From the IMG/VR virus record IMGVR_UViG_3300046517_000919: DNA of 20,000 nucleotides, one strand, 5' to 3'. Below the pieces are notes generated by a model that was not told the DNA's origin, searched no databases, and saw only the letters and a list, made by a program, of their open reading frames with translations. Below, one piece after another: positions 3,311 through 20,000 of this stretch (position 1 is the stretch's first letter; every line of letters begins with the position of its first letter). The DNA comes from an uncultured virus (IMG/VR IMGVR_UViG_3300046517_000919) (Duplodnaviria > Heunggongvirae > Uroviricota > Caudoviricetes). Both the position numbers and the translations under genes were made by a program.

Positions 3311-3498
3311 CGCTTCTCTCCCGGTTTCGAGGGCTTGTGACGGTAGGCCCCGGTGCGGTTGATCACGGCGCGGATCGTGGCGTGGCTGACGTTGAACGAG
3401 CGCGCCAGCGCCATCACTGTCCACTTGGTGTTCTGGGTCCGGTAGAGGTCGCGGACTTCGTCCGCTTCCTTCGGTGGCAGTTGAGTGCGGCGGCTCAT
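3307..3498 (-). CDS. Small helix-turn-helix DNA-binding protein
   Basis: EVRDLY...WTVMALARSFNVSHATIRAVI is an HTH pattern; GGAGG RBS. Confidence 0.75.
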   Translation of the reverse strand: MSRRTQLPPKEADEVRDLYRTQNTKWTVMALARSFNVSHATIRAVINRTGAYRHKPSKPGEKR

Positions 3499-3632
3499 CG
3501 CATCGCCCTCCACTTGAGCCAATCGGCGCGCGAGGCGAAGCACATGTACCCGCCGTCGACCTTGCAGATGATGGCGGCGCGCGGGTATCGGCGGCGCGCC
3601 GCGCGGTAACTCTTGACGGGCACGAAGACCAT
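3495..3632 (-). CDS. Small hypothetical phage protein (45 aa, absent from the ORF track)
   Basis: MVFVPVKSYRAARRRYPRAAIICKVDGGYMCFASRADWLKWRAMR; GGAGG RBS; fills the gap with an ATGA overlap. Confidence 0.65.
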   Translation of the reverse strand: MVFVPVKSYRAARRRYPRAAIICKVDGGYMCFASRADWLKWRAMR

Positions 3633-3635
3633 CGC

Positions 3636-3812
3636 TCACCCCCTCCACATGCCGCTGCGGCGCAACCTATGGCAGGGCTGGCAGACGGTCAGCGGCGCCC
3701 CTCTCTCTTCCCACTCCAGTTCCACCCCAAGCTGGCGCACGACCTTGTTGGTATGCAGCGGCTCCTTCCTGTGATGGCAGAGCGGGCATTTGTCGTTAGC
3801 AAGGTTTCTCAT
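3636..3812 (-). CDS. Small Zn-finger protein (CxxC...CxxCH)
   Basis: MRNLANDKCPLCHH...TVCQPCHR; ATGA overlap with the HNH stop. Confidence 0.65.
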   Translation of the reverse strand: MRNLANDKCPLCHHRKEPLHTNKVVRQLGVELEWEERGAPLTVCQPCHRLRRSGMWRG

Positions 3813-4237
3813 CGTTCTCTCCCCAACTGGATATTGCCGACATGCGACGTGCTCACACCGTAGGCGAGGCCCAGTGCTCGCTGGGTGATATGACCGCGCA
3901 ATTGCTTGATTTCCCACACTTCGCGAGCGGTGAGCTTGGGGTTGGGACCGCCGTTCCCGCGCCCCTTCGCAGCCATGTCCTGCATATTGTCGAGATGGGT
4001 TCCGAGAAAGAGGTGGCTCGGATTGACGCAGAGCGTCACGTCACACTTGTGGAGAACGTGCAGATCGTCTGGGATCAGGCCGTGGTACAGCAGCCATGCG
4101 ACGCGCGCGGCATACTGATCTTCGCCTTCGAACCAAAAGCGGGGTTGGTCATGTCCAGCTACCCCGCCCAGCCAGAGCCAGCACCCACTGTTCGGCTCTG
4201 GAATGTATTTCGCTTCGAAGCGGGCTAAGGGGCTCAC
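3809..4237 (-). CDS. HNH endonuclease with C-terminal HTH
   Basis: PEPNSGCWLW, ARVAW, VLHKCDVTLCVNPSHLFLGTHLDNMQDM; C-terminal KLT...TQRALGLAYGVSTSHV. Confidence 0.92.
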   Translation of the reverse strand: MSPLARFEAKYIPEPNSGCWLWLGGVAGHDQPRFWFEGEDQYAARVAWLLYHGLIPDDLHVLHKCDVTLCVNPSHLFLGTHLDNMQDMAAKGRGNGGPNPKLTAREVWEIKQLRGHITQRALGLAYGVSTSHVGNIQLGRER

Positions 4238-6225: not shown

Positions 6226-6278
6226 GTTGTCCTCGGTAGTGTGCCGAATGAATTAGGGGCCGGGTTTGACCCCAGCCC

Positions 6279-6307
6279 CATGTAGCACCTACTGCGACAA
6301 CACGCAA
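6279..6307 (-). promoter_or_regulatory. Promoter plus operator upstream of the helicase
   Basis: -35 TTGCGT (6307-6302), 17 bp, -10 TACATG (6284-6279); operator TGTAGCA-CCTAC-TGCGACA at 6281-6299. Confidence 0.6.
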
Positions 6308-6311
6308 GCGG

Positions 6312-6605
6312 TTAGATGATGTCTCGCGAGATGACGTAGCCGAGCGAGCGCAGCCACTTGTAGGCTGGGCGCGGGAAGGACATGACGCCGTCGTAGTCCA
6401 CGATGCGCTTGCCCTCCAGCCCGAGCCCAATCGTCTCGGTCGTCTCAAGGCTCGGGAAGTCCCACTCAAGGAATACGTCAGCGCCCTGCCTGTAGAGCGT
6501 CATGGTCGAGGCGTGACGGCCGAGGCTGCGCTCGCCCCACGAACCCTGTTGGATGATCTCCTTAGCCGGGAAGGTGATGCTGGCGATGGTTTCAAGGTTG
6601 CTCAT
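6312..6605 (-). CDS. Hypothetical phage protein (97 aa)
   Basis: Clean ORF with IVDYDGVMSFP motif; ATGA overlap. Confidence 0.75.
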   Translation of the reverse strand: MSNLETIASITFPAKEIIQQGSWGERSLGRHASTMTLYRQGADVFLEWDFPSLETTETIGLGLEGKRIVDYDGVMSFPRPAYKWLRSLGYVISRDII

Positions 6606-6856
6606 TGGTCACTCACTTTCTCGGCAATGGTTTCGATCTCGCGGATCAGGTTGGTAAGGGTCTGGTAGCGGGCGGCGTGCTCCTTGGCGGCTTGGAAGCC
6701 CGCCAGCCCGCCTTGGACGTAGTAGTCGCGGGGGTTGGGCGCGGCGGCGCCAAGGGCGTCCCGCGCCGCGCGCAGGGCATCCAGCGCGTGGATGTAGCCG
6801 TCGAGGAGCGCCTGCTTGGCGCTCCCGTTGAGGTGTACGGTCGGGACCACCATCAC
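6602..6856 (-). CDS. Hypothetical phage protein
   Basis: (V)MVVPTVHLNGSAKQALLDGY...APNPRDYYVQG; GGAGGAGG RBS; overlaps the SprT stop. Confidence 0.75.
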   Translation of the reverse strand: MMVVPTVHLNGSAKQALLDGYIHALDALRAARDALGAAAPNPRDYYVQGGLAGFQAAKEHAARYQTLTNLIREIETIAEKVSDQ

Positions 6857-7503
6857 GCCTCCTCCGCCTTCATGGGCTCGTCGCAGTCGCCGCAGATCAG
6901 GTTGGCGTCGGGCTTGGCCCATGCGTTGGCGTCGCACGCCGGGCAGGAGTACTTGGTCTTGGACGCGGCCTTCTTCTTGGCCTTGGCCCGGCCCTCGGTC
7001 GTCCACGCCTCGACGTAGTCGATCACCACGCCCTGACGCAGAAGCTTGGCGCACGCCACGTCGAAGGCCGCGCCTTTGACGATCTGGTGGGTGACCTTGT
7101 TGCCGACTTCCTTGCCCGGCTGATCGACGCTGATCGGCTTGAGGCCGACGCGGTGCATCCACGCCGCCCATTCGCGGTTGTGGTAGCCGCCCTTGGCGGG
7201 TTTGCCGGTGTGGTACTGCTCCAGATGCACCATCTCGTGGACGAGGATCGACAGGATGAAGGTCGTATCGGTCTTCTCGAAATGGGATGGGTTCAGCGCG
7301 ATCTCGTCGGTGTGGGCCTTGCCGTCGCGGGTCTTGAAGCGCGCCCCGGCGAAATATCCGCCGCAGTTTGCCTTGCGCTGGAGGGTGACGAGGCACGTCG
7401 GCAGTTTGCCGCCGAACAGCTCGGCGTTGAGGTAGTCGTAGGCCTGAACCAAGCTGAGATAGGTGGTCTTGGTGGGGTCTTTGGCTGGGGTAATGGCGTT
7501 CAT
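6853..7503 (-). CDS. SprT-like zinc metalloprotease
   Basis: YLNAELFGGKLP, EIALNP, LVHEMVH (HExxH), GYHNREW, C-terminal CxxC...CxxC ribbon. Confidence 0.9.
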   Translation of the reverse strand: MNAITPAKDPTKTTYLSLVQAYDYLNAELFGGKLPTCLVTLQRKANCGGYFAGARFKTRDGKAHTDEIALNPSHFEKTDTTFILSILVHEMVHLEQYHTGKPAKGGYHNREWAAWMHRVGLKPISVDQPGKEVGNKVTHQIVKGAAFDVACAKLLRQGVVIDYVEAWTTEGRAKAKKKAASKTKYSCPACDANAWAKPDANLICGDCDEPMKAEEA

Positions 7504-7547
7504 GGAACTGCTCCCTTCGTGACGCAGATGATCCTGCGTCGTACGAC

Positions 7548-7575
7548 GGTGTAGCAGTTACTGCGACAAAGTCAA
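7548..7575 (-). promoter_or_regulatory. Promoter plus operator upstream of sprT-like gene
   Basis: -35 TTGACT (7575-7570), 16 bp, -10 TACACC; operator TGTAGCA-GTTAC-TGCGACA at 7550-7568. Confidence 0.6.
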
Positions 7576-9401
7576 CTGATAGGGGTGAATATGTGGGTGG
7601 CGGGGTTGATCGTCCCGATGGTCACCCAAGCGCCAGTGCTGTCCTGCACTTGCACGGCTTGCAGCGTCGAGGGCGGCGGCAAGGCGATGATGCCGATATT
7701 GAGCGTCGCAGGCAGGGTGCCGACCACCGGCAGCGGCGTCACCAAGATCTGGTTGCTGAGCTGCGAGGTCACCGAGGCTTGGGTGTTCGTGCCGATGACC
7801 ACGCAGCCAATATTGGAGTTGGTGTCGTTGGGATCATGGGTCTGGTAGTTAGATGAGTCGGTCCCGACCGGGACCGTCCCATTCCGCTTCCAGTTGTAGG
7901 AAAGCGTCGGCGAGCCGGTCCAAGAGCCGCCGTCGCAATGCAGGGTCGAGCCCACTTGCGAGAGGCCGGTTATCTGGGGCTGCACGAGGATAGTCGGCGG
8001 CGGGCCGAGCCCTGACGTGATGGTGATGCCCGCAGTGGCTGTTGCGGTTACTGGCCCGGCTGCGTTGGTCGCGGTGACGACGCAAGTCAGGGTGGTGCCC
8101 ACATAAGAGTTGTCGGCGACGAAATCCGGCGAATTGGGAGCGCTGGTGATGGTGATCCCATTGCCCTTCCACACGTAGGAATAAGTCGGCGAGTACAGCC
8201 AATTGCCATGGTCGCAATGGATGGTGGTCGTGGCGCCCGGCGTCACCAGTTGCGAGCCCGAGAGGGTGGGGCTCGACTGGAGCACCGGCAGCGCCGTCAC
8301 GGTGATCTGGTTGCTGATCGGCGATGTCCCCGAGCCGCCCGCATTGGTCGCAGTGACGATGACGCCAATTTGCGCGTTGAAATCGGTGGTGGCGACGGTT
8401 GTGTAGGAGGTGGCGAGCGGGCCGACCGCGCCAGCGATGCTGATGCCGTTGCGCTTCCATTGGTAGTTGTAGCCGGTTGGCGAGCCGTTCCAAGTGCCGC
8501 CGGGCAGAGGGTTAACGGTGAGGGTGGTGGGCGCGGGGCCTGCCGATCCGGTGATGACCGGGGCGCCGGTATTGGTGGGCGCCGCCGGGCCGCCGCTGGG
8601 GCCTCGGATGTTCGACAGAGCGATTATCCGGTCAACACGGCGCTCGTAAACCAAGTCCCAAGGGTTGCTGGCGAAATCGACCAACTGTTTGGTGTTGAGA
8701 AATTTAGCGGCGATGAAGCCCATTGCTTCTCTATTGTGCGGGACGCCGCCTGCGCCCTCGGTCAGCATCGTATAGCTCGTCCCTGCCGCGAGGGCGTTCA
8801 GCGAGGAATGCGTGCTGACTGACAGCACCCCAGAGGTGAGATCATTGACGACCATCGTCGCCCTCGACCCGGCGGCCGTGCTGTAGGAGATGGCGTAGAA
8901 ATAGCAATGCCCGTCCTGCGGGAGCTGCGGCTGAACATCGAAGGTTAGATTTACCTTGCCGCCGTTCATAAACCAAATAAATAGCGGATCGCTATAGATA
9001 CTCAGCAGGCAATTCGCGCCATACGAAATCATGTTTTGCGTACCGGCGCTATCCTGTCTGACTTGAACGATGCACCCCATCGTGAGTTCGTTCATTGTCT
9101 CAGGAATAGCAGGCCAATGAGCAGCAAACGTCGATGCCGTAGTAGGATAAATCGCCGGGCCTACTGGGGTCATAACCGAATGACTGACGTTGACGCTTCC
9201 AATAGCGCTTACTTTGTTTGTAACATAATCATAAAAACAGCCGCCCCCAGCGGCGTTTCCGGTGTTTAGACTTCCCGGCAGGGCGAGAGCCGCCAGCCGC
9301 AACTTGGGGCCATAGAGGATATGGTTGCGATTGAGCCGCGCTTGGCCGCCGGGATAGCGATACCGGGTCAAAACATGCGGCGGTGCGATCAGGCGAGCCA
9401 T
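7572..9401 (-). CDS. Putative virion (tail/fiber or decoration) protein with three Ig-like repeats
   Basis: Start MARLIAPP at 9401; three repeats P.(I/L)(T/S)G...(L/I)....G.W...P..(Y/L).Y.WK.NG...(I/L).(V/C).V.(A/G)TN; beta-rich N-terminal domain (possibly LamG/ConA-like); T/S/G/P-rich. Confidence 0.75.
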   Translation of the reverse strand: MARLIAPPHVLTRYRYPGGQARLNRNHILYGPKLRLAALALPGSLNTGNAAGGGCFYDYVTNKVSAIGSVNVSHSVMTPVGPAIYPTTASTFAAHWPAIPETMNELTMGCIVQVRQDSAGTQNMISYGANCLLSIYSDPLFIWFMNGGKVNLTFDVQPQLPQDGHCYFYAISYSTAAGSRATMVVNDLTSGVLSVSTHSSLNALAAGTSYTMLTEGAGGVPHNREAMGFIAAKFLNTKQLVDFASNPWDLVYERRVDRIIALSNIRGPSGGPAAPTNTGAPVITGSAGPAPTTLTVNPLPGGTWNGSPTGYNYQWKRNGISIAGAVGPLATSYTTVATTDFNAQIGVIVTATNAGGSGTSPISNQITVTALPVLQSSPTLSGSQLVTPGATTTIHCDHGNWLYSPTYSYVWKGNGITITSAPNSPDFVADNSYVGTTLTCVVTATNAAGPVTATATAGITITSGLGPPPTILVQPQITGLSQVGSTLHCDGGSWTGSPTLSYNWKRNGTVPVGTDSSNYQTHDPNDTNSNIGCVVIGTNTQASVTSQLSNQILVTPLPVVGTLPATLNIGIIALPPPSTLQAVQVQDSTGAWVTIGTINPATHIFTPIS

Positions 9402-9406
9402 CGCGA

Positions 9407-9895
9407 TTAAGCCGCGTTGGTGTTGATGTCGCCCGTCAGGATTTTTACGGTGCCGGAATTGATGGTGACGCCCAAATTGTTCTGAAGAGCGAGGACGAAC
9501 GTCGAAGGCGGCAGCAAGAGGTTGCTCTTGGCGAGGTAAACGAAGGCCGTTGATCTCGGGTACGCCGCCATCACGCACAGCGGCTCCCATGGCGGGGTGT
9601 AGGTGGCTTGGGTGCCAGCGGTGAGCCCGCCATCGCCAAAGGTGGTCAGATCGTCCAGTTGCTCGGCCGCCCAGATGGTGACGCAGGCTCCCGCGAGGAG
9701 GGATGCCGTGGTGATGGACACTTTCATCGAGACTTTGCAGAGCTGGTCGTAATTGCCCGCGCCATCATTTGCGAACGCCGTGAGGCTCGACAGGATCGTG
9801 CTGCCGTTGGTGAGGGCGGTGAGGTCCGAGGCTTGGAAGGCGTTGGTCCAAGTCGATGCGAGACGGCCGACAGCAAGACCAGTGATATTGGCCAT
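9407..9895 (-). CDS. Putative virion structural protein (beta-rich, 162 aa)
   Basis: MANITG... A/T/G/S-rich, low charge; directly upstream of the Ig-repeat gene. Confidence 0.65.
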   Translation of the reverse strand: MANITGLAVGRLASTWTNAFQASDLTALTNGSTILSSLTAFANDGAGNYDQLCKVSMKVSITTASLLAGACVTIWAAEQLDDLTTFGDGGLTAGTQATYTPPWEPLCVMAAYPRSTAFVYLAKSNLLLPPSTFVLALQNNLGVTINSGTVKILTGDINTNAA

Positions 9896-9992
9896 GGCTC
9901 AATTAGCCCTTGGTGGTCCCGACGCCTCGCGCCCTTCATAGCTCAGCCCGCGACAAGAGAAAAGGGGAGCCGTCCACGTCGTACGAATGTCG

Positions 9993-10021
9993 TTGACCGA
10001 TGTCGCAGAATGTGCGACAAA
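9993..10021 (+). promoter_or_regulatory. Promoter plus perfect operator palindrome
   Basis: -35 TTGACC 9993-9998; TGTCGCA-GAATG-TGCGACA at 10001-10019; weak -10. Confidence 0.6.
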
Positions 10022-10058
10022 CAGTGCGGGCAGAATTCACGCCCATCTGGAGGCAGCT

Positions 10059-10406
10059 ATGAATTTCAACATCGATATCGCCCGCGACGGTTTCAGCGCC
10101 ACCCGCAACACCGAGGACGGCCCGGTTCAGGTCTGGGAAGAGTATTCCGTCATCATCGCCACCTCCGAGCGCGGCGACCGCTGGTCGCTGGCGGACATCG
10201 GCAAAGGGGCCGGGCTTGTGATCAGCGACGATGAGGCGACCATGCGCGAAGTTCTCGCGGCCCTCGACCATAACCCGGATACCCAGCCCGTTCGCTGGCT
10301 CCCCTGCGATCCGGTCTACGGCTCGGACGCTTGGGATGATGACGCGGAGCATTCGCTGGCTTGCTTCGAAGCCGATTGCTACGGCGAGCCGCGCCCCCGC
10401 TGGTGA
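10059..10406 (+). CDS. Hypothetical acidic phage protein
   Basis: GGAGG RBS then MNFNIDIARDG...; C-terminal W...DPVYGSDAW motif. Confidence 0.75.
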   Translation: MNFNIDIARDGFSATRNTEDGPVQVWEEYSVIIATSERGDRWSLADIGKGAGLVISDDEATMREVLAALDHNPDTQPVRWLPCDPVYGSDAWDDDAEHSLACFEADCYGEPRPRW

Positions 10407-10499
10407 GAGCCCCTCAACACCGTGCTTCAGGCCCGCTCCTTCAGCGGGCCTTTGGCGTCAGGAGGGTCCGGTGACCCGCCCAAGCTTAGGAGACGTGAG

Positions 10500-11000
10500 A
10501 TGAGAGAGTTCACCAAGTCCGAGGCAATCGCCCTCGCTGCGCACGATCACTACCATAGCATTTTGCACCTTCACGGCGACCGCTACGGCGTCTGGGACGC
10601 CAAGGGTGACAGCTTGGTTGAGTTCGACGAGGCGCCGCGTCCCACCACCCGCATCATCCAACTGACCGCTACGGTCGCCAACCCAGCGAAGGACGGGCGC
10701 AAGACCGATTGGACCGGCGCCAAAACCTTCGATGAAGGAACGCGCTTCTCCGACAACGGCTCGACCATCCGCATCGTGAACGCCACGGCTTACAGCTACG
10801 TCAGGAGCATGAGCGCCGAGGGCCGCGCGATCCTTGCCAACAGCGTTGAGGTCGAGCCCGAGACGGTCGCCGAGCTGATCGCCGTCCACGAGTGCATGGA
10901 TGCCGACTTGGTTCTGCGCGTGCTGTTCAAGCAGGGGCGCGTCAACGCGGCCGACTTCAAGGCTGCTGGCGAGGTGATCAACAGCGAGGAGGTTCTCTGA
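10500..11000 (+). CDS. Hypothetical phage protein
   Basis: AGGAG RBS then MREFTKSEA...; GC3-biased codons. Confidence 0.75.
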   Translation: MREFTKSEAIALAAHDHYHSILHLHGDRYGVWDAKGDSLVEFDEAPRPTTRIIQLTATVANPAKDGRKTDWTGAKTFDEGTRFSDNGSTIRIVNATAYSYVRSMSAEGRAILANSVEVEPETVAELIAVHECMDADLVLRVLFKQGRVNAADFKAAGEVINSEEVL

Positions 11001-11143
11001 TGGCCGCGACCCGCCAGTGGCGCCCGAGCGAGGCGCAGAAGGAGCGCAACCGGCTCATCCGCCAGCAGCGCGCCAACGACCGGCGAGCAGCCAAGCGCCG
11101 CTGGCTCAAGGCGCTCAAGGTCGCCGCCAAGCCGCCTGAGTGA
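11000..11143 (+). CDS. Small basic hypothetical protein
   Basis: GGAGG RBS, TGATG overlap; MAATRQWRPSEAQKERNRLIRQQ... Confidence 0.6.
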   Translation: MAATRQWRPSEAQKERNRLIRQQRANDRRAAKRRWLKALKVAAKPPE

Positions 11144-11156
11144 CCCACTACCCAAT

Positions 11157-11196
11157 GCGCAAGAAAGGGGGCCTCTGTGGCCCTCTTTTTTTGCGC
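11157..11196. terminator. Bidirectional intrinsic terminator
   Basis: GCGCAAGAAAGGGGGCC-TCTGT-GGCCCTCTTTTTTTGCGC; U-tract on + and an A-rich arm giving U's on -. Confidence 0.75.
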
Positions 11197-11460
11197 CTTG
11201 CGCTCAAGCCCCCACCCATGCCAGCCTGCGACCGTGCGGCTCGAAAGAGGGATAGGCCGTGCGTGGCCCCCTGACACAGTCCCTTCGCCTGCAATTCTAC
11301 GGCAGCGGGCGTCACCATCGACCGCAGCCGTATGGCGGGCGATAGCTCGGTGAGTGACGGGGGCCGTTTTACCCACCTAAACGCCCACATTTTTCGCGTG
11401 TGAATTAAAAAGGCTAAATTGACAGGGAAGCCCGCTGAGTGGCCTTCCTTCAATTCCCGG

Positions 11461-11479
11461 TGTCGCAGGCTCTGCTACA
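11461..11479. promoter_or_regulatory. Operator palindrome copy
   Basis: TGTCGCA-GGCTC-TGCTACA in a non-coding region. Confidence 0.6.
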
Positions 11480-11622
11480 AAACCCCCCACTCAGTGAGCT
11501 TCCTAGGCGATCCTAGGCTATTTACATGCCTTAATTGGTGGGGATTTTTGGTGAAAAGTGCGGTTGATCGACTTGGCTGAAATTGGTCAATAATCAGAAA
11601 AATATGAGCTAAGCCCCGGCGA

Positions 11623-11886
11623 TCATTGCATGGTCCCCATGGTCTGCTTCGCCCGCCCGCCTTGGACGATCAGCAGCTCGACGTGCTTGGCGATGCCGCG
11701 CGAAATCAGCAGCGCGTCATCCTTGGTCGGCGCATTGTCGCAGAAGGTCGCAGTGACCAGTTCCAGCGCCCGGATGATGCTCAGCGGGTGCTCGCACCTG
11801 TCCAAGACCTCGATCACTTGATTGGCGAGCCCGCAGACCTCGGCGACCTCTCTGGGGCTGGGTCGAGATTTACCTTGGTCCGCCAT
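11623..11886 (-). CDS. Hypothetical protein (87 aa)
   Basis: GAGGAG upstream; amphipathic helical sequence. Confidence 0.65.
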   Translation of the reverse strand: MADQGKSRPSPREVAEVCGLANQVIEVLDRCEHPLSIIRALELVTATFCDNAPTKDDALLISRGIAKHVELLIVQGGRAKQTMGTMQ

Positions 11887-12017
11887 AGCCGCTGCTTCTC
11901 CTCATCCTGCACCCAGAGCCACATGGGAGGCGCTACAGGCCCGACGAAGTCAGGGTGGGGCCGCCATAGCACTTCCAGCCACCCGGGCGTCCACGACCCT
12001 CTCAGGTTCGCTCCCAT
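11814..12017 (-). CDS. Hypothetical W/P-rich small protein
   Basis: MGANLRGSWTPGW...FVGPVAPP; TGATG coupling upstream, but 73-nt overlap with the downstream gene. Confidence 0.45.
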   Translation of the reverse strand: MGANLRGSWTPGWLEVLWRPHPDFVGPVAPPMWLWVQDEEKQRLWRTKVNLDPAPERSPRSAGSPIK

Positions 12018-12103
12018 CACGTCACCACCCAGTAGACCAGCAGCACCAACGCCCCCGCCAGCAGGATGGCGACGCTGATGTAAACCCGGTGACGGTCGGT
12101 CAT
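12017..12103 (-). CDS. 28-aa transmembrane peptide
   Basis: MTDRHRVYISVAILLAGALVLLVYWVVT; fills the gap with a TGATG overlap. Confidence 0.5.
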   Translation of the reverse strand: MTDRHRVYISVAILLAGALVLLVYWVVT

Positions 12104-12112
12104 CGCGGATCG

Positions 12113-12616
12113 TCACCACGGCGTGCGGGGGTAGAGGTCGCGCCTTTCGCCGAGCAGCGCCTCGGAGCGCCCGGGCACGCAAGTGCAGTCGAGCCAGCCC
12201 AGTTGCTGGTAGTTCGCCTGCTGAAGCGCGTGCTGCTGCTGGGCGCTGAGCTGCTGCCCCACCGGGTTCTGGAGCGCTTGCTGCCCCTGATGATACTGCT
12301 GGCGCTGCTGCGACAATTGACTGTCGCCCCAGTGGTTGGGTGCCGCCAGCGCGCTGTACGCCCGCGCGCTGTACGCCCGCTGCCAATAGTCGGACTGCGA
12401 GCGCCAGTGCCGCGTCTGCGCCCGGTCCAGCTCCCCGCGTACCCGCTCGTCGTTGAGCTGGGCCTGCAAGGCGTTGTAGCGCTCGGTCAAGACTTCGTAA
12501 TCCTTGACCCGCGCCTGCTTCTCACGCTCCAGCTCGGCGATCTTCTCCTTGTCCTCGTCGGAACGCTTCAGTAGCGGCAGCGCCACAAACGCCAGCATCG
12601 TGCTCAGCAGCGACAT
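12113..12616 (-). CDS. Hypothetical protein: hydrophobic N-terminus, coiled coil, Q-rich tract, WLDCTCVPGRSEAL tail
   Basis: GAGGAGAG RBS; paralog of 12618-12908. Confidence 0.75.
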   Translation of the reverse strand: MSLLSTMLAFVALPLLKRSDEDKEKIAELEREKQARVKDYEVLTERYNALQAQLNDERVRGELDRAQTRHWRSQSDYWQRAYSARAYSALAAPNHWGDSQLSQQRQQYHQGQQALQNPVGQQLSAQQQHALQQANYQQLGWLDCTCVPGRSEALLGERRDLYPRTPW

Positions 12617-12617
12617 C

Positions 12618-12908
12618 TCACTCTCCTCTCTTCAAAGCCTCGGCCCTGTCAGGCGTGCAAGTGCAATCGGCCCATTCGATAGCCTTTGGCTCCGAGCCGG
12701 GTTGCATCTTGAGCGCGCTGGTCAGGTGGATGTTCTCGATTGTCGCGTTGGTCAGCTTCTCGCGCACCGCCAGACACTCCGCCCGCCACAGGTCGCGCTC
12801 GGCCCTCGCTTCCGTGAGCTGCCGCTCAAGCTCAGCCTCAAGAGCGTTCTTCTTCTTTGGCCGCACCAGCGGGATCACCACCAGCGCCAATGTGCTCAAT
12901 ATCGACAT
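12618..12908 (-). CDS. Hypothetical protein: hydrophobic N-terminus, coiled coil, WADCTCTPDRAEAL tail
   Basis: GAGGAGG RBS before MSILSTLALVVIPL; paralog of the downstream gene. Confidence 0.75.
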   Translation of the reverse strand: MSILSTLALVVIPLVRPKKKNALEAELERQLTEARAERDLWRAECLAVREKLTNATIENIHLTSALKMQPGSEPKAIEWADCTCTPDRAEALKRGE

Positions 12909-12910
12909 GC

Positions 12911-13081
12911 TCAGCCTCCTCGCCCGTTTGGAATGTATTTCCCTTCGATTTCGCACGGCAAGTCGGGGTCTTCGACCAGCCGCTTGATCGCAGCGCGCAG
13001 ATCGGCGTCTTGGCGCCGCCGGATAGCCGGGACCAAGCGCTGAATGCGCTCCAACCATGTCCTGCGACGAAACTGGATCAT
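12911..13081 (-). CDS. Small hypothetical protein (56 aa, absent from the ORF track)
   Basis: MIQFRRRTWLERIQRLVPAIRRRQDADLRAAIKRLVEDPDLPCEIEGKYIPNGRGG; ATGA overlap. Confidence 0.6.
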   Translation of the reverse strand: MIQFRRRTWLERIQRLVPAIRRRQDADLRAAIKRLVEDPDLPCEIEGKYIPNGRGG

Positions 13082-13503
13082 CCCCCTAGAGCCTTCCTAG
13101 CGCGCTCCAGCGCCTCGACCCAGTTCGGGCCGTCATACACCCCGCCATGGACATGATAGAGGGTCCACACCCCTTTGAAAGCCGGATGAGCGGCAATCTC
13201 ATCAAGCTTATCGACCAGCCCCTTCAGCGCCGCGCGCACCTCGTCCTTCGCCTCCTGCCTCGCCTGCCTCTCCCCAAGCAACTGGTTGACAACGGCGAGC
13301 GTGTCTGTGGCCCGGCGTGACGGCGGGCTGGGATAGCGCTCGCGCAGCGTCGCCAGCATCAGCCTGCCCATGTTCGGCAGGCGTATGATTTGCTCGTCAG
13401 TGCGCTGCGCCAGCTCCTCGACCGTCACGCCCTCGCCGCTGGCGACGTTCGCGAGGCGCGTCCACAACATCTTGAGCGTCTGCTCTGGGGTGTAGCGGGT
13501 CAT
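13078..13503 (-). CDS. Protein with an RNA polymerase alpha-CTD-like (HhH) N-terminal domain
   Basis: GVTVEELAQRTDEQIIRLPNMGRLMLATLRE resembles RpoA CTD [31 protein letters not shown]. Confidence 0.65.
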   Translation of the reverse strand: MTRYTPEQTLKMLWTRLANVASGEGVTVEELAQRTDEQIIRLPNMGRLMLATLRERYPSPPSRRATDTLAVVNQLLGERQARQEAKDEVRAALKGLVDKLDEIAAHPAFKGVWTLYHVHGGVYDGPNWVEALERARKALGG

Positions 13504-13793
13504 TTGGGCTCCACCGGCAGGGTCATGCGAACGATGGCGTCAGCCGCCGCCGAGCGCGGCTTGGGCGATCTAGCCTTAGTCTCACCGGCCCATAGCATGA
13601 CCCGCCGACAGCCAACACAATCGACTGCGCTAAGCCGTCTGGGCGGGCTCCATGGGCCAAGGCGAGGGATAGCGCCGCACAAGGCGCCAATGGCTTCAGG
13701 GCCCGCGCTGACGGCATGGAAGCGTCCATACTTACCCACTTGTCGGGAGTTAATCCGACGGGCGACCAATAGGCGTTTGGGCGTTTTCACCAT
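13500..13793 (-). CDS. Hypothetical Zn-binding protein
   Basis: FHAV...ALCG...VDCVGC ligand pattern; ATGA overlap; TTGACA-18 bp-CATCTT promoter upstream (13830-13801). Confidence 0.65.
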   Translation of the reverse strand: MVKTPKRLLVARRINSRQVGKYGRFHAVSAGPEAIGALCGAIPRLGPWSPPRRLSAVDCVGCRRVMLWAGETKARSPKPRSAAADAIVRMTLPVEPK

Positions 13794-13920
13794 GTCTTGG
13801 AAGATGCGTGAGGAGAGACAAATGTGTCAAGTGCTGCGACGAGCCTGATTATTCACAAGAGAGAGTGATGGTTTAGATGCGGGGTCAAAGCCGGGTCCAG
13901 AACAAATCTGTAATAGCATA

Positions 13921-14024
13921 TATCAATGGCTTAGCTGGTGCTGGTGTGGCAAAAGTGGGGTCATGGCAAAAAGACCAATCCTGTCAATGTCAATCCCCTT
14001 TTTTAGGGGTCTAACCCATTGATA
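13921..14024. promoter_or_regulatory. Two IHF consensus sites in inverted orientation (third near-match at 14481-14493)
   Basis: TATCAATGGCTTA (13921-13933, +) and TATCAATGGGTTA (14024-14012, -) match WATCAANNNNTTR; CATCAATGGGTTA at 14481. Confidence 0.6.
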
Positions 14025-14721
14025 TTGCAGGATGTGGTACCCAACGGTTTGAAATGTCATGTTAAAAAACCCCCCTCGCGCATCAACCCCACGATCTTAG
14101 ATCGTAAAACTCGCGTAGCGAAGGCCCGGCCGAAGCGAAGCGCGTTCAAACATTTGCGTACTGCATCCGCGCGCGTGCTACGCACACGCCCGCGCAGCCA
14201 GACCCAAATGACCCCGGAGTGTAGCGCTTCATGCAACCTCGCCAGCGATCAGCGTTCGGCTGCGTCCCGACCCTGACGGGCGCTCGGCCGGGCCTCGCTG
14301 TCGGGCCTTCGCCTCACTCACTCGGAGGCCTTCAGATCACCACCGCCTGATCGTACGATAGGCTTCCGCCGGGCGCGGCGCGCGGCTGCGTCCTGACGCG
14401 CCCTGACTGCGACAGGAACTGCGACAAATCTGGGAACGAAACCGGGAACAGCCGAGCCGCCGATGATGCAGATGCTGCTACATCAATGGGTTACGCTGGC
14501 TGTTCGACGGAAGGCTGTTCCGCCAGCGACGGATAACCAATCCGCTGGTCATGCGGTGGGCTGGGGGTGGCATGGGGTGAGGCGGATCGACCGCTGGCCA
14601 ATCGTACGGCCGGATGGCAGGCGAGAGGGGGGGGGGGGAGCCCCCGGCGCCTTCTTGGTCAATGTCAGCCCCTCCGCTAATATGTGTCGCGCTTCAGATG
14701 AACAACAGCCCATATATGGAC

Positions 14722-14753
14722 TATTATTCTTCATGGGGGGTATTATTCTTCAT
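14722..14753 (+). repeat. 13-bp direct repeat TATTATTCTTCAT x2, separated by G6
   Basis: Copies at 14722-14734 and 14741-14753. Confidence 0.8.
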
Positions 14754-14978
14754 TGCGGGGATTTTTCTCCATGAGGTGGGGAATGGCGCGCAAGTCGGAC
14801 AATCATCCTTCTACGTTGGTGGATTGGGGTTATCGTCCCGGGTATTTGCCGCATGGGGCGAGGGGCGATTACCGGCTTGCGAATGAGAAGCCGCCGACGG
14901 TGAGGGAGCGGCAGGGGCAATCGCAGAGCCGCAAGCCTGTTTCGTTAGCGTCTGTTTGGTTAAGGGGAACCAAGGATA

Positions 14979-15560
14979 ATGGCTACTCGTAGGGTTCTGC
15001 GCATAGGCCGCCATGCCCGGCCTAAGTCCACATGGGAGGATTTGGACCCACTGTTAGAAACTCTAACCCACACGCAACCACCTTCGGTGGATATGCGAAC
15101 AGAGCCGCCACTTCCGTATGACCCGCTTAATTACAGTCGTGGGCCACGGGGTCGCACGCCCGGTGCGGAGGCGAGGGCGATTGTGAGCCGGATGGCGGGG
15201 TTGGGTTACAGCGTCCCAAAGATCAGCAGGCTCACGGGTTTCCGTCCATCGACTTTGTATCGCGCGTTTCGTGAGGAGCTGACCACTGCCGCTGATTTGC
15301 GGGATCTTGATGTTCTCGAAAGCGCCTTCCATCAGGCGGTTGGCGGTCCTGAGAGGAATTTCCGGCATGCGGACGCGAGCATGACGCGGTTTTGGCTGGG
15401 GCAGCGTCTGGGGTGGAAGCAGCCGACGGCTTACGATCAGGCCCGCAACAAGGTAGAGATTGACCTCGACCGGTTGAGTGACGAGGAATTGCATGAGCTT
15501 GATCGAATCATTGGCCGGGCGAGTGACGGCGACACAGGTGAAGGAGGCTCTGAGGCGTAG
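14979..15560 (+). CDS. terS: Terminase small subunit
   Basis: HTH MAGLGYSVPKISRLTGFRPSTLYRAFREEL, then FHQAVGG...TRFWLGQRLGWKQ and C-terminal DLDRLSDEEL; immediately upstream of and overlapping terL. Confidence 0.8.
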   Translation: MATRRVLRIGRHARPKSTWEDLDPLLETLTHTQPPSVDMRTEPPLPYDPLNYSRGPRGRTPGAEARAIVSRMAGLGYSVPKISRLTGFRPSTLYRAFREELTTAADLRDLDVLESAFHQAVGGPERNFRHADASMTRFWLGQRLGWKQPTAYDQARNKVEIDLDRLSDEELHELDRIIGRASDGDTGEGGSEA

Positions 15561-17187
15561 GGCTTCGGATCAGACCCAGCGCAATGTGGACCGCTCGATC
15601 CCTGCGGTTCGCGCCAGATGCGAGAGATCTCTGTACACGTTTGTGAGGGAAGCATGGCACGTTCTGGAGCCTGCGACGCCGTTCGTAGACAACTGGCACC
15701 TTCAGGCGGTGTGCGACCACCTGACGGCGGTGAGCGACGGGACGATCACCAGACTTCTGATCAACATCCCCCCCGGGTCGATGAAGTCACTGCTCGTCTC
15801 AAGCTTTTGGCCAGCGTGGGAATGGGGGCCCCGGTCGATGATGTCGTTGCGTTACTTGACGACTTCATTCGCCGAGATCGCCGTTGGCAGGGACTGTCGG
15901 AGGATGAGAGATCTGATTTTGTCCGACTGGTATCAGAAGCACTGGCCAGACGTGGTTTTGAAGCGCGTGGGGGAGTTCAGTTTCGAAAACTCGATGACTG
16001 GTTCAAGAGATGGGATTCCCTTCGGCAGCCTGACCAGTAAGCGCGGAGATCGCCTTATCATCGACGATCCGCACTCGGTGATAAGGGCTGAGAGCAAGCT
16101 TGAGCGTGAAACGACGATTCGGAAGTTTCGCGAGGGGGCGATCAACCGGCTGAACGATCAAAAGCGCAGCGCCATCGTCGTGGTGATGCAGCGGCTGCAT
16201 TCCGGCGACATCTCTGGCGAGATCATGGACACCGGGATGGGCTATGTCTGTCTCGTGCTGCCGATGGAATATGAGAGCGGGCGGCATTGTTCGACGGAGC
16301 TGGGCTTCTCCGATCCTCGTGTCGTCGAGGGGGAGCTGCTTTGTCCTGCGCGCTGGGACCGCGTCGTATGCGATGACCTCAAGCGGGACATGGGTCCGGT
16401 GGGATGGGCCAGCCAGTACCAGCAGCGGCCGGTGCCGCGTGGCGGCGACATCCTGCCCTACAACGGCTGGGAGTACTGGAGCAAAGCCACTTCCATGATC
16501 TACGGCCGGTCGGAGAACCAGTTCCCCGATTTTGAGTACATCCTCGGGATCTTGGACACTGCGTTCGGCGAGAAGCAGGAGAGCGATTACTCGGCCTTCG
16601 TCGTGCTTGGGGTGTGGACGAATTTGTATGACCAGCCGCAAGTGATGGTGATGCATGCGTGGCGGAGGCGGCTCAAGTTTCACGACCTTGTCGAAGACAT
16701 CATCAAGCAGGCGGAGAAGTTCCGGTGCGACCGGGTGCTGGTGGAGAACAAGGCCAATGGGATCAGCGTGTTTGATGAGATCGTACGACTGACCAAGGAC
16801 GAGAGCTTCTCGATCCAGAAGATCGACCCGAGCAAGAACTTGAGCGCTGGGGGGACCGACAAGGAGGCTCGCGCCAGAGCCGTCAGCCACTTCTTGGGCG
16901 AGGAGCGCGACGACGGCACGCGGCGCCCGGGGATGGTGTGGGTGCCGTGCGTGACCCAGCCCGATGGTCATGTATGGCCGCGTAGCTGGGTTGAGATGCT
17001 GATGGCCGAGGCGGCCGAGTTTCCCAAGGGCAAGCACGACGACCTCGTTGACGCCTTCGTGCATGGGTTGCGTTTCCTGCGACTGCGTGGTTTGGTTCGG
17101 CGGTCGCGGGAGGTGGAGGTCGAGGTGCAGAGCGCGTTGCGTGAAGGGGGGATGGAGGCGGGCTTGGCGCCGCTTTATCCGACGTGA
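15493..17187 (+). CDS. terL: Terminase large subunit
   Basis: NWHL Q-motif region, LLINIPPGSMKS (Walker A), LIIDDPH (Walker B), VVMQRLH, YQQRP, nuclease LDTA...DYSA, VENKANG, FPKGKHDDLVDA; GAGG RBS before ATG 15493. Confidence 0.95.
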   Translation: MSLIESLAGRVTATQVKEALRRRASDQTQRNVDRSIPAVRARCERSLYTFVREAWHVLEPATPFVDNWHLQAVCDHLTAVSDGTITRLLINIPPGSMKSLLVSSFWPAWEWGPRSMMSLRYLTTSFAEIAVGRDCRRMRDLILSDWYQKHWPDVVLKRVGEFSFENSMTGSRDGIPFGSLTSKRGDRLIIDDPHSVIRAESKLERETTIRKFREGAINRLNDQKRSAIVVVMQRLHSGDISGEIMDTGMGYVCLVLPMEYESGRHCSTELGFSDPRVVEGELLCPARWDRVVCDDLKRDMGPVGWASQYQQRPVPRGGDILPYNGWEYWSKATSMIYGRSENQFPDFEYILGILDTAFGEKQESDYSAFVVLGVWTNLYDQPQVMVMHAWRRRLKFHDLVEDIIKQAEKFRCDRVLVENKANGISVFDEIVRLTKDESFSIQKIDPSKNLSAGGTDKEARARAVSHFLGEERDDGTRRPGMVWVPCVTQPDGHVWPRSWVEMLMAEAAEFPKGKHDDLVDAFVHGLRFLRLRGLVRRSREVEVEVQSALREGGMEAGLAPLYPT

Positions 17188-17390
17188 ACACCGACATTGT
17201 TCTGGCGGAGCTTCGCCGGGTTCCGAGGCCACGGCGGAGCGTCGATATCTGGAAGGTGATCGGGCGCGAAATCAGCCGGTCTGGGATCTCGACTGCGCTG
17301 ATCAGGCTGGAGAAGCAGGGGGTGGTGAAGCGCCAGCGGCGGTTCGATCAGGACGGCGACGAGATCGCCTCCCACTGGTCGCTGCTATGA
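17184..17390 (+). CDS. Small winged-helix DNA-binding protein
   Basis: IWKVIGREISRSGISTALIRLEKQGVVKR; GTGA overlap with the terL stop. Confidence 0.65.
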   Translation: MNTDIVLAELRRVPRPRRSVDIWKVIGREISRSGISTALIRLEKQGVVKRQRRFDQDGDEIASHWSLL

Positions 17391-17578
17391 CTTTCACCCA
17401 TCGCGAGCTTTGGAAGTGCGCCGCGCGCGAGGTGGCGATGCGCAAGAACGTGTTCAAGAAGCGCGGCATGACGCCCGAGCGCGAGAAAGAGATCGAGCTG
17501 ATGGAGGCGATAGCCGCGCATTTTCGCGAGCTGGCTGAAGGGCTGTCATCCCCCAGTCGCGATAATTCCACAGAATGA
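17387..17578 (+). CDS. Hypothetical phage protein
   Basis: MTFTHRELWKCAAREVAMRKNVF...EIELMEAIA; ATGA overlap. Confidence 0.7.
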   Translation: MTFTHRELWKCAAREVAMRKNVFKKRGMTPEREKEIELMEAIAAHFRELAEGLSSPSRDNSTE

Positions 17579-17581
17579 GAC

Positions 17582-17611
17582 TTGACAGACTGTCGCTATC
17601 TTTGCGACAGT
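17582..17611 (+). promoter_or_regulatory. Promoter plus operator upstream of the PEP-CTERM cassette
   Basis: Consensus -35 TTGACA 17582-17587; TGTCGCT-ATCTT-TGCGACA at 17591-17609; weak -10. Confidence 0.6.
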
Positions 17612-17769
17612 GCGAGCCGCCGCTATCCCGGCGTGCCAGCCGCTCACGGGCGGAACTGGCGTCCTGTTCAAATGTCTTAGCTTGGGCACTGGACGAAAGC
17701 ACGGGAAAGACGGGGAGGGGGTTGGGTGACCGCCCGCCCCCTCCAGCGGGGACCAACACGCGGGGTAAC

Positions 17770-18471
17770 ATGAATATGAGAAAGCTTTTACTGACGACGG
17801 CGCTGCTTGGCGCTGTCGGGCTGAGCCCGGCTTGGGGCGCCAACACGGCGCTCATTCTGTGGAACGGGGCGAACCCGGGCGACGCCGAGACGGCGACCGG
17901 CACCAACGCTGCGGCCATTCTTGGCTCCAGCCTCGACGGCATCACCATCTCGGTGAGCGCCGCATCGCGGGCGCTGGACCCCAATGGGTTGAGCGAAGGC
18001 AACATCACCATCACCAACACCACCAACACCATTCAGGTGTTGCACATCATCGCTGGCGCGAATGGCTTCCTCGGGCCATCTGCGGACTTCAACCTGACCG
18101 GGACAATCGGCGTCGATAGCGGCACGGCGACTTTGGCTGGTTCGTTCTTCGCCGACGCGACCAACTCGCTCAACGGTCAGGGCTTTAACGTCACCGGCAC
18201 GGATCTTGGTGACTTCCTGTCGGCCGCGCTCGTCGGCCCGCACTCGTTCTCGTTCAACGGCAGCGGCTTTGACCCTGTGCTAGGGCCGTATGGTTTGGCT
18301 GAGAGCCTGACATTGACCCTTCAGCCGGGGGCTATCGTTGGCGTTCAGAACGTCTCGATGGACGTAGCGGCGGTGCCCGAGCCGTCCACTTGGGCGATGA
18401 TGGGCGCGGGTTTCGCGTTCATAGCGTTCTTGGGCTTCAAGCGTAAGCGTGAGGCGAGGTTCGCCGTCTAA
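17770..18471 (+). CDS. PEP-CTERM (PEPxxWA-CTERM) sorting-domain surface protein 1
   Basis: Signal peptide MRKLLLTTALLGAVGLSPAWG-A; G/T/N/S-rich body; C-terminal VPEPSTWAMMGAGFAFIAFLGFKRKREARFAV (PEP, TM, basic tail). Confidence 0.93.
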   Translation: MNMRKLLLTTALLGAVGLSPAWGANTALILWNGANPGDAETATGTNAAAILGSSLDGITISVSAASRALDPNGLSEGNITITNTTNTIQVLHIIAGANGFLGPSADFNLTGTIGVDSGTATLAGSFFADATNSLNGQGFNVTGTDLGDFLSAALVGPHSFSFNGSGFDPVLGPYGLAESLTLTLQPGAIVGVQNVSMDVAAVPEPSTWAMMGAGFAFIAFLGFKRKREARFAV

Positions 18472-18559
18472 GAAGCCCTTCGGCGACGGCGAAGGGGGAG
18501 GGCGACTTCGATTCGTCTGTCGCTCTCCCCCAATGGCCCAACAACAAGGAACAACTCAC

Positions 18560-19366
18560 ATGAAAAAACTTCTTCTCGCAGCCGCGCTCACCGCGCTCGC
18601 TGCGCCCGCCTACGCGCAGACCTGCACGACCGATCCGGCGACTGGCAATACTCTCTGCGATCCGTCCACGCTGCATGTCTCAAGCTCCACCGCGACCGGC
18701 AAAGACCCGGTGCTGCTCAACGACACCAACACCTTCACCATCACTGAAGTTGGCAATCAGAGCATCAACGACCCGATCCGCGTCTACTTCATCGAGCCGT
18801 TGGGCGGGGTTCTGCCGACGATCACCGGAGCGACCGGGATTGGTCCGCTTGGAGCGTTCACCATCGGTGCAACCTCACTCGACCTTGCGCCGCGCGTACT
18901 CGATCTCGCTAACGGTCTGTTCGACGGCGCGCTGCTTGGCACCCTCACCGCCGGTCAGGACTTCGGCAAGCAGCTCGGCGTCGGCGGCGGGAGCTTGTCG
19001 TTCACCAACTTCATCAACGAGTACACGGCGCTTGGCCTGACCCTGCCCAGCGCATTCCAGATCGAGGAGGCGTCGTTCAACGTGCCGGGTGGCGGGTTTA
19101 CCAGCGACACGAACTTCCTCACCGTGAACGGTTCGTTCGCGCAGGGGACGATCATCGCTCCGATTGCGGTGGACGTGTCGATCAATCCGCACAACGGCAA
19201 GCTCGACATCACGGCGTATGACAGTCCGTGGACCGAGACGGCGATTGTCAATCCGCTTGGCTCTCCGGTCCCCGAGCCCTCGACTTGGGCAATGCTGATC
19301 AGTGGTTTCGGACTCATGGGCCTGTTCGGCTGGCGTAAGCACAAGATTGCGAGGTACGCCGTCTAA
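18560..19366 (+). CDS. PEP-CTERM (PEPxxWA-CTERM) sorting-domain surface protein 2
   Basis: Signal peptide MKKLLLAAALTALAAPAYA-Q; C-terminal VPEPSTWAMLISGFGLMGLFGWRKHKIARYAV; AAGGA RBS. Confidence 0.93.
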   Translation: MKKLLLAAALTALAAPAYAQTCTTDPATGNTLCDPSTLHVSSSTATGKDPVLLNDTNTFTITEVGNQSINDPIRVYFIEPLGGVLPTITGATGIGPLGAFTIGATSLDLAPRVLDLANGLFDGALLGTLTAGQDFGKQLGVGGGSLSFTNFINEYTALGLTLPSAFQIEEASFNVPGGGFTSDTNFLTVNGSFAQGTIIAPIAVDVSINPHNGKLDITAYDSPWTETAIVNPLGSPVPEPSTWAMLISGFGLMGLFGWRKHKIARYAV

Positions 19367-19446
19367 AATCCCCCAGACGGCGCACAAAGGGGGAGGGGAT
19401 TGGCTACCGCACCTTCCGAGCCCCTCCCCTACCGCGCGGAGCTGAA

Positions 19447-19548
19447 ATGGACGACGAAGTTCAAAACTTCCTGACCACCGCGATGATCGTCATCGCCGTC
19501 GTCACTCTGACCATCTTCCTCATTTTTGCGATGCCCCATCATGGATAG
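19447..19548 (+). CDS. 33-aa transmembrane peptide
   Basis: GGAG RBS; MDDEVQNFLTTAMIVIAVVTLTIFLIFAMPHHG. Confidence 0.55.
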   Translation: MDDEVQNFLTTAMIVIAVVTLTIFLIFAMPHHG

Positions 19549-19723
19549 CGTTTGGATCGATTTCGCAAACACCGTCGCCTGGTACGCAACCTTCGTCCTA
19601 GCGGGGGCGGTCGTGGTGATCACGCTCATGTTCCGCCTGCTGGCGAACCCCGGCACGGCCCCGATGCACCAAATCACCGAGGAGCAGCGTCAGCGCATCG
19701 CGCGGGCCTACGGCCAGCCATGA
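19541..19723 (+). CDS. Small single-TM protein
   Basis: MDSVWIDFANTVAWYATFVLAGAVVVITLMFRLL...; overlaps both neighbours. Confidence 0.6.
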   Translation: MDSVWIDFANTVAWYATFVLAGAVVVITLMFRLLANPGTAPMHQITEEQRQRIARAYGQP

Positions 19724-19911
19724 CCGAGCCGAGCGCCGTGATCCCCGACTATCGCATGATCTGCGCTGATTGTGGTCGCGATAATGGCCCCGTCAGCAAG
19801 TTAAAATACGCCAAGAACAAGATGCCCATTTTGCCTATCTGTCAGTGCGAGCGCAGCCTATTCCGTCTGATTGACGGCCTATCCCCTCCCCCGAAGGAGA
19901 ATGGAAAGTGA
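19720..19911 (+). CDS. Small Zn-ribbon protein
   Basis: ICADCG...ICQC; ATGA overlap. Confidence 0.6.
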   Translation: MTEPSAVIPDYRMICADCGRDNGPVSKLKYAKNKMPILPICQCERSLFRLIDGLSPPPKENGK

Positions 19912-20000
19912 GGGAGGTAGCCGATTGGATGATCCTGAACGGATACGCCACCGGGCACGGCGATACGACCGCCGACATGTTGAGAGAGTTAGAGGTTCAG
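19908..20000 (+). CDS. Hypothetical phage protein, partial (runs off the window end)
   Basis: AAGGAG RBS, GTG start; VADWMILNGYATGHGDTTADMLRELEVQ. Confidence 0.6.
   Translation, partial: MREVADWMILNGYATGHGDTTADMLRELEVQ

Follow-up and report, generated by a model that had tools for sequence, protein, structure and literature searches.

The DNA analysed here is a stretch of 20,000 nucleotides from the uncultured virus record IMGVR_UViG_3300046517_000919 (Caudoviricetes), and this whole stretch is referred to below as the window. On its plus strand it carries two adjacent genes, A and B, which encode the secreted PEP-CTERM proteins P0001 and P0002 and lie downstream of the gene for the large terminase subunit, terL (Table 1). 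An initial annotation, made from the letters alone, had placed here, about 580 bp after terL, two neighbouring genes each specifying a signal peptide and a VPEPSTWAM-helix-basic tail. Both genes were found as described, with tails exceeding the cut-offs of the PF07589 and TIGR02595 profiles, and the distance from the end of terL to the start of gene A was measured as 582 nt, most of which is filled by two small open reading frames (ORFs).

Anatomy of the two proteins

Both proteins begin with a Sec-type signal, comprising an n-region with K/R, a hydrophobic core and an AxG/AxA site, that is conserved in the family alignments A1 and A2; the signal peptides were assigned by reading the sequence together with these alignments. 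So read, the N-terminus of A is MNMRKLLLTTALLGAVGLSPAWG followed by AN and that of B is MKKLLLAAALTALAAPAYA followed by QTC, with the predicted cleavage site directly behind the first part in each case. No Cys is present at the cleavage site of A, and in B the first Cys occurs at position +3 of the mature protein, where it forms a pair with another Cys 10 residues further along. Neither protein has a lipobox, which makes both unlike u-spanins; a unimolecular spanin of the T1 gp11 type was considered and rejected for this reason and for want of a PHROG lysis match.

The C-terminal tails follow the same order of PEP motif, hydrophobic helix and basic cluster. In A, V202 and the PEP motif (203-205) are followed by STWAM, about 14 hydrophobic residues, KRKR (224-227) and ARFAV; in B, V237 and PEP (238-240) precede STWAM, about 14 hydrophobic residues, RKHK (259-262) and IARYAV. 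In alignment A1, which covers the family of gene A, P203, E204, T207 and W208 are invariant, and the alignments of both families show the P and E of the motif without exception. Against the PF07589 profile, A scored 26.7 and B 33.9 bits (gathering score 20.7), and against TIGR02595 26.2 and 20.5 bits were obtained (cut-off 16), the matches ending 6-8 residues short of the C-terminus in both proteins. Both read PEPSTWA, and on the PEPxxWA-CTERM model NF035944 B scored 35.0 bits, exactly the cut-off of 35. For every named PEP-CTERM protein family (FxDxF NF038126, PepA NF033554, NF038129, MHFG and XDP1), A and B remained under the cut-off; the best score was that for FxDxF (A 27.0, B 33.4 vs cut-off 50), and the remaining families scored lower still relative to their cut-offs, with most matches spanning the tail only.

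Comparison of 83 distinct phage tails with 100 distinct bacterial tails, at positions left free by the search pattern, revealed agreement at T +4 (98% of phage and 99% of bacterial tails), at G +11 (98% and 99%) and at A +6, M +7 and F +12, and the basic cluster was found to start at +21 in both sets. On these profiles, the tails of A and B are genuine PEP-CTERM signals. Separately, several metagenome contigs matched only the 30-nt PEP core (window 18370-18402 and 19268-19300), with flanks unlike on both sides, which implies that nearly identical copies of this core are present in further genes of these communities.

AlphaFold2 models built on the family alignments reached a mean predicted local distance difference test (pLDDT) score of 81 for A and 84 for B, and showed for each an all-beta ectodomain with one C-terminal helix (A 205-226, B 242-266). 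In a profile comparison of A with B only the 35-column tail aligned. The ectodomains are therefore unrelated, and the idea of the two genes being paralogues was dropped. Ectodomain B gave no Foldseek match in the PDB at E 0.001 or better, and the sequence-profile search of the PDB was likewise without a match. For ectodomain A, a beta jelly roll of the carbohydrate-binding-module type is a candidate fold. The fold matches of the models would be compatible with surface or glycan-binding proteins, but are no proof; Bd1399 has no known function (PMC10792529).

For the distribution of the ectodomains, hidden Markov models (HMMs) of A and B were built after removal of the tails. The bacterial scan covered one genome per species (185,579 species) and yielded 386 tblastn relatives, from which 78 loci were kept; most of their matches are mainly to the tail, full-length identity was never above about 30%, and none of the 78 loci matched the tail-less HMMs in its ORFs. 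Among 1.84 billion cluster representatives, the A ectodomain gave 29 matches, all of about 240 aa or shorter save one 1885-aa protein, P0204, whose seven weak A-like stretches belong to an MBG/Big adhesin-like protein; it was set aside as offering no functional lead. Word-based searches returned at least 169 relatives in the case of A and 52 in that of B; almost all are metagenomic, and many lie on contigs of 40-80 kb. No match to P0001 or P0002 was found by tblastn in 50,697 GenBank phage records, no PHROG family covers A or B in the window or in the other scanned loci, PADLOC gave no match, and the best Protein Atlas match was an unnamed cluster at 0.92 without a lead. By these searches, the A and B ectodomains look phage-restricted.

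Phage context and recurrence

Contigs of four soil or rhizosphere runs, one of which may be the source sample, tile window positions 14500-20000. The junction between the end of terL and A is spanned without any difference by a single contig (16839-17826), as is that between A and B by two (17959-18679 and 17681-18595), and the contig that links the 3' end of B with the sequence behind it (19349-19646) has 8 other letters and 2 gaps. The terL of the window is 87% identical to that of viral locus L083 and 84% identical to that of L106. The latter locus is part of viral record G208 (74,075 bp, CheckV 99%), which aligns colinearly to window 2928-11970 and 14269-14684 (identity 71-81%). Behind its terL (1205-2938) and before its portal gene (10976-13642, phrog_1216), G208 carries one gene of type A (5650-6420) and one of type B (6554-7264). 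A further viral record, G001, is 99% identical to window 4666-14102. Besides terL, the SNF2-type helicase, the two HNH endonucleases and the Ig-repeat protein with virion-type matches (Table 1) also speak for a phage. The bridged junctions and the layout of G208 make a chimera or a host contig very unlikely, so that A and B are, on this evidence, truly phage-borne and the DNA is viral on both sides of the pair, as the initial annotation had wished to see verified. Between 2938 and 10976, G208 has about 8 kb of small ORFs that match no PHROG, among which the A-B pair is found; this is an unusually large accessory island within the packaging/head module.

PEP-CTERM proteins are otherwise cellular, and NCBI lists one relative, P0008, under a Casimicrobiaceae metagenome-assembled genome (MAG). 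Both points could suggest that host DNA is present here, through a chimeric mis-assembly or through a bacterial contig wrongly called viral. However, the longest contig of that MAG protein and viral record G211 both measure 58,619 bases, and phage-function PHROG matches were obtained in 13/13 scanned loci. Direct terminal repeats are present in 5 of the 23 searched carrier records, and 16 of the 23 are at least 90% complete (CheckV). Together with the bridged junctions and the position of the pair in G208, these data already contradict a non-viral origin, which we regard as highly improbable.

The alignment scan of IMG/VR returned 161 relatives, from which 79 loci were kept, each with one or more ORFs whose C-terminus is a PEPxxW-helix-basic tail. 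With the window, 80 sources were thus available. The A ectodomain was detected by its tail-less HMM in 63 of them, the B ectodomain in 10, each time directly downstream of A, and other ectodomains in the remaining 17. A third secreted family, C, follows gene A in L080 (11003-11815, P0044) and L091 (10765-11556). A survey of viral databases had been suggested by the initial annotation, and the recurrence of the family in many phages makes the case stronger than its author knew. Close relatives of P0002 were found neither in viral contigs nor in metagenome contigs, and the alignment scan of metagenome contigs gave 14 loci, none of them close to the phage of the window.

For the PHROG scan, 263 greedy ORFs were taken from 14 selected loci and 150 were submitted; ORFs shorter than 150 aa, ten ORFs of L128 and one spurious ORF of L117 were left out, which reduced the scan to the 13 loci mentioned. 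The functions recovered were Erf, exonuclease, helicase, DNA polymerases, primase, tail fibres, baseplate, endolysin, DNA-ejection protein, terL and integrase. The backbones of the carriers differ, as evident from G002 (64,898 bp, 100% complete), which has the pair at 74% identity and no relative of the window terL. The gene usually closes an early or replication operon, or lies where two modules meet. In nine loci (L080, L082 and L085-L091) a conserved leader block of 35-50 nt precedes gene A, with differing upstream genes; it has the form (A)TGAGCGAGCCGAC-N5-TCGGCCAAA...AAAGGGTGACA..ATG and holds a 5-bp stem, for which no covariation was detected. Since the leader is kept despite different upstream genes, the unit seems to move with it, and the block may mark the left edge of a mobile unit.

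A tyrosine integrase was found in 6 of the 23 carrier records and in 4 of the 16 that are at least 90% complete, G208 included. Decoration of the lysogenic cell, which the initial annotation had put forward beside that of the infected cell, does not hold as a general setting with so few integrase carriers; any role must also pay off in lytic infection. Of the soil or rhizosphere DNA runs, 24 contain cassette DNA, and at least half of its sampled words occur in 10 of them; no RNA run was among these 24 sequencing runs.

Flanking sequence and neighbouring genes

The features of the window are compiled in Table 1.

Table 1. Position and properties of the features in the window.
Feature	Position	Strand	Remarks
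HNH endonucleases (two)	1423-1911, 3809-4237	-	
SNF2-type helicase	4234-6225	-	DUF5710 N-terminus
672-aa protein with Ig-like repeats	7572-9590	-	matches virion structural PHROG
Second motif copy, TTGACC and dyad	9994-10019	+	about 40 nt before plus-strand gene 10059-10406
terL, terminase large subunit	15478-17187	+	phrog_38, E 3.7e-76
68-aa ORF, weakly winged-helix-like	17184-17390	+	MarR_2/GntR E 0.007-0.009, below cut-off; no PHROG/PADLOC match
63-aa ORF	17387-17578	+	start overlaps preceding stop (ATGA); one tblastn match, L148, 45% identity
Candidate promoter-operator, TTGACA -35-like hexamer and dyad TGTCGC-N7-GCGACA	17583-17609	+	hexamer perfect, 17583-17588
G-rich stem-loop (GGGGAGGGGG ... 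CCCCCTCC)	17712-17745	+	leader of gene A
Gene A, secreted PEP-CTERM protein P0001	17770-18471	+	233 aa; alternative start 17776
Gene A, parts	aa 1-23; aa 24-200; aa 202-233 (nt 18373-18468)	+	predicted signal peptide; putative beta jelly-roll ectodomain; tail
Stem-loop GGGGGAGGGCGAC-N12-GTCGCTCTCCCCC	18494-18531	+	between A and B
Gene B, secreted PEP-CTERM protein P0002	18560-19366	+	268 aa
Gene B, parts	aa 1-19; aa 237-268 (nt 19268-19363)	+	predicted signal peptide; tail; between them Cys-x10-Cys loop and beta-sandwich ectodomain
Stem-loop GGGGAGGGGATTGG-N12-CCGAGCCCCTCCCC	19390-19429	+	3' of gene B
33-aa single-pass membrane miniprotein	19447-19548	+	
60-aa membrane miniprotein	19541-19723	+	45% over 29 aa to 39-aa transmembrane ORF after L080 gene A, E 2e-5
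63-aa Cys-rich small protein	19720-19911	+	no PHROG/PADLOC match

Upstream of gene A, a TTGACA hexamer is fused to a dyad, and this motif has 2 matches in the window (0.01 expected). It also precedes gene A in the relatives L083 and L106 (L106 5631-5649), its general form being a TTGAC[AC] hexamer with TGTCGC-N6/7-GCGACA. Judged from this pattern, the TTGAC[AC]-dyad is probably a phage promoter-operator, with the winged-helix-like ORF as a possible binder. The scan for sigma-70 sites revealed no full promoter on the plus strand between 17000 and 20000. Of the promoter previously assigned to the two genes, the conserved hexamer and dyad could therefore be retained and a sigma-70 site could not; the cassette probably has its own regulated start, though no textbook promoter.

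Each PEP-CTERM gene is flanked on both sides by stem-loops built as GGGGAGGG(G)-loop-CCCTCCCC, and a similar hairpin is located 3' of gene A in the unrelated phage L001 (about 10700-10770). The bracketing stem-loops escaped the terminator scan because none has a T-run. The Rfam search, at E up to 1, gave two chance-level rows only, and no tRNAs were found.

Behind their PEP-CTERM genes, the window and 10 of the 14 listed viral loci (for instance L001 11685-12210, L080 10651-11006, L090 11803-12023 and L117 11762-11878) encode two to four single-pass membrane miniproteins of 28-60 aa. Some of these are homologous between loci, and in L117 one overlaps the start of the endolysin gene. It is conceivable, then, that A and B are exosortase-independent, tail-anchored periplasmic proteins that act with the miniproteins in envelope remodelling, lysis timing or inner-membrane exclusion. 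The topology fits, with a cleaved N-terminal signal and a C-terminal helix; an endolysin is close by in L001 as well as in L117, and the absence of an integrase from 12 of the 16 near-complete carriers implies that the genes act in lytic infection. A mere anchor, however, would not need a tail that equals bacterial PEPxxWA tails at unconstrained positions and in the spacing of the basic cluster. The P and E of the motif are without exception in both families, and neither a lipobox nor a PHROG lysis family was found for A or B. We therefore consider such an anchoring role rather unlikely.

Hosts, proposed role and known systems

PEP-CTERM/exosortase systems are common among the bacteria of soil, sludge and biofilms. 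In the window, no exosortase family was among the Pfam matches of the 35 ORFs scanned, in agreement with the initial annotation, and PF09721, the exosortase profile, matched none of five viral records, four of which are at least 99% complete. Phages whose records lack the enzyme could obtain it from the host only.

Going by the record titles, Alphaproteobacteria account for 69 of the 78 bacterial loci with the best-matching tails, namely 17 under Bradyrhizobium, 13 under other Hyphomicrobiales-type names and 39 under uncultured Alphaproteobacteria. Relatives of the window terL occur in 46 of 201 Bradyrhizobium-family genomes, with best identities of 46-56%, compared with 5 of 201 genomes of a betaproteobacterial control family, with best identities of 33-35% (one of the five is the unpublished genome G315). 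Against GenBank phages, blastn of window 15478-19400 yielded no more than two terL matches of 170 nt, both with Erythrobacter phages and about 70% identical, which are too weak for naming a host. From the sequence comparisons, the host is probably a soil alphaproteobacterium of the Bradyrhizobium family. PF09721 is present in four of five Bradyrhizobium-type genomes. Two exosortases were classified, and XrtV was the best model for both, at 324.1 bits (cut-off 313) and at 305.9 bits, just below; both adjoin an EpsD-like peptidyl-prolyl isomerase, and the one in L160 also adjoins an FxDxF PEP-CTERM protein.

The combination of a host-type sorting tail, phage-restricted ectodomains and no exosortase in the searched phage records leads us to read A and B as exosortase substrates. 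We consider it reasonably probable that they form a mobile accessory cassette of the 'moron' type whose products, processed by the exosortase of the host, change the surface of the infected cell. The proteins would be exported by Sec and lose their signal peptide after AWG (A) or AYA (B), whereupon the C-terminal helix and the basic cluster would keep them temporarily in the inner membrane. A host exosortase, presumably an XrtV-type enzyme serving PEPxxWA tails in the predicted Bradyrhizobium-family hosts, would then recognise and cut them at the PEP motif, and the beta-sandwich ectodomains would be delivered to the cell surface or the exopolysaccharide (EPS) layer. The most likely benefit would be a change of the surface early in infection, by which other phages are excluded or progeny are shielded from re-adsorption, as is achieved by Llp of phage T5 via the lipoprotein pathway. 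A role in lytic infection is favoured because most near-complete carriers have no integrase and because the gene tends to lie with early genes. As a wider and more tentative proposal, to which we give somewhat less than even weight, soil and rhizosphere phages may share a phage-specific mobile cassette of one or two phage-restricted exosortase substrates (A, B, C) and miniproteins, which has its own leader, moves between unrelated lytic and temperate backbones, and rebuilds or jams the EPS-linked surface.

Several observations weigh against processing by a host exosortase. A scores only 26.9 on NF035944, under the curated cut-off of 35, so that in the profile check proposed by the initial annotation TIGR02595 was passed by both proteins and the PEPxxWA model was reached by B and missed by A. 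Its expectation of an exosortase in the predicted hosts was borne out by the four genomes mentioned and not by the fifth candidate, the MAG G004, which is without a PF09721 match; two further MAGs with similar tails gave no match to the XrtV model. The scan of the genomes representing the 185,579 species revealed no prophage copy, and the regions around the best prophage terL matches (L183-L185) contain neither PEP tails nor A or B. The membrane miniproteins that follow the cassette, and its place in L117 directly before a small transmembrane ORF and the endolysin, leave room for an exosortase-independent envelope role. Finally, some members of families B and C have PEA in place of PEP (the family-C copy of L080 and the B gene of L081, 10763-11587, P0006, read PEA-STW), which implies that the third position of the motif is not strictly kept.

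Such PEA-type variants could be poor leaving groups, and as such they would suit a different role, in which A and B are decoys, made in bulk early, that jam the host exosortase, stop the maturation of host PEP-CTERM proteins and loosen the EPS/floc matrix. Host-like tails on phage-restricted ectodomains and the usual position at the end of early or replication operons would agree with this. A pure decoy, however, would have no need of well-conserved, confidently folded ectodomains (pLDDT 81 and 84), two different ectodomains are kept in fixed order, and there is no direct evidence for jamming; we regard the decoy role as distinctly unlikely.

If the wider proposal of a shared phage cassette applies, this would be the first viral use of exosortase sorting, and the proteins would provide a natural minimal substrate set for the question of exosortase clients. 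To our knowledge, protein function and post-cleavage fate in PEP-CTERM systems are still unclear. A phage-restricted family of small, well-folded substrates that recurs in at least 63 of the 80 examined viral sources offers compact material for tests. It also draws attention to an unstudied route by which phages of soil and rhizosphere, with likely hosts in the Bradyrhizobium family, may alter aggregation, EPS or phage susceptibility. In full-text literature searches combining PEP-CTERM or exosortase with phage, prophage or virus, with subscription journals outside their coverage, no description of phage-encoded exosortase substrates was found. The TIGR03118 family is counted among the cell-derived genes of hot-spring viruses (PMC11003980), and the Dehalococcoides mobile element IME1 has a PEP-CTERM domain protein, HOG10 (bioRxiv 10.64898/2026.09.15.751708); in the passages concerned, neither source analyses the genes, their spread among phages or a dependence on host exosortase.

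With the cellular PEP-CTERM/exosortase system of PEPxxWA tails and exosortase V, as in Bradyrhizobium-type bacteria, A and B share the signal peptide, PEP motif, helix, basic cluster and tail profile. They differ from it in being carried by phages without an exosortase and in ectodomains that are absent from the 78 bacterial loci. The flocculation protein PepA of Zoogloea (NF033554) is likewise a small secreted PEP-CTERM protein, and is tied to EPS and aggregation (Gao et al. 2018, as listed among the references of PMC12642866). P0001 reaches 17.3 bits on the PepA model vs a cut-off of 80 and is thus not a member of that family.

The phage lipoproteins Llp (T5) and Cor (phi80, N15) block the receptor FhuA and occur on lytic and temperate phages. 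Like them, A and B are phage-encoded envelope proteins that would rely on host sorting and alter the surface of the infected cell. Llp and Cor are sorted by a lipobox via Lgt/Lsp/Lol and their function is proven, whereas A and B carry a PEP-CTERM tail and their function is inferred. SasX, an LPXTG surface protein encoded on a phiSPbeta-like prophage of Staphylococcus aureus, is a lysogenic conversion factor and, as is proposed for A and B, a substrate that a phage supplies to a C-terminal sorting transpeptidase of its host; it depends on the Gram-positive sortase A and the LPXTG motif, whereas most carriers of A or B have no integrase. If the proposed role is correct, the exosortase would join lipoprotein sorting and sortase as a host pathway that phages use for envelope proteins.

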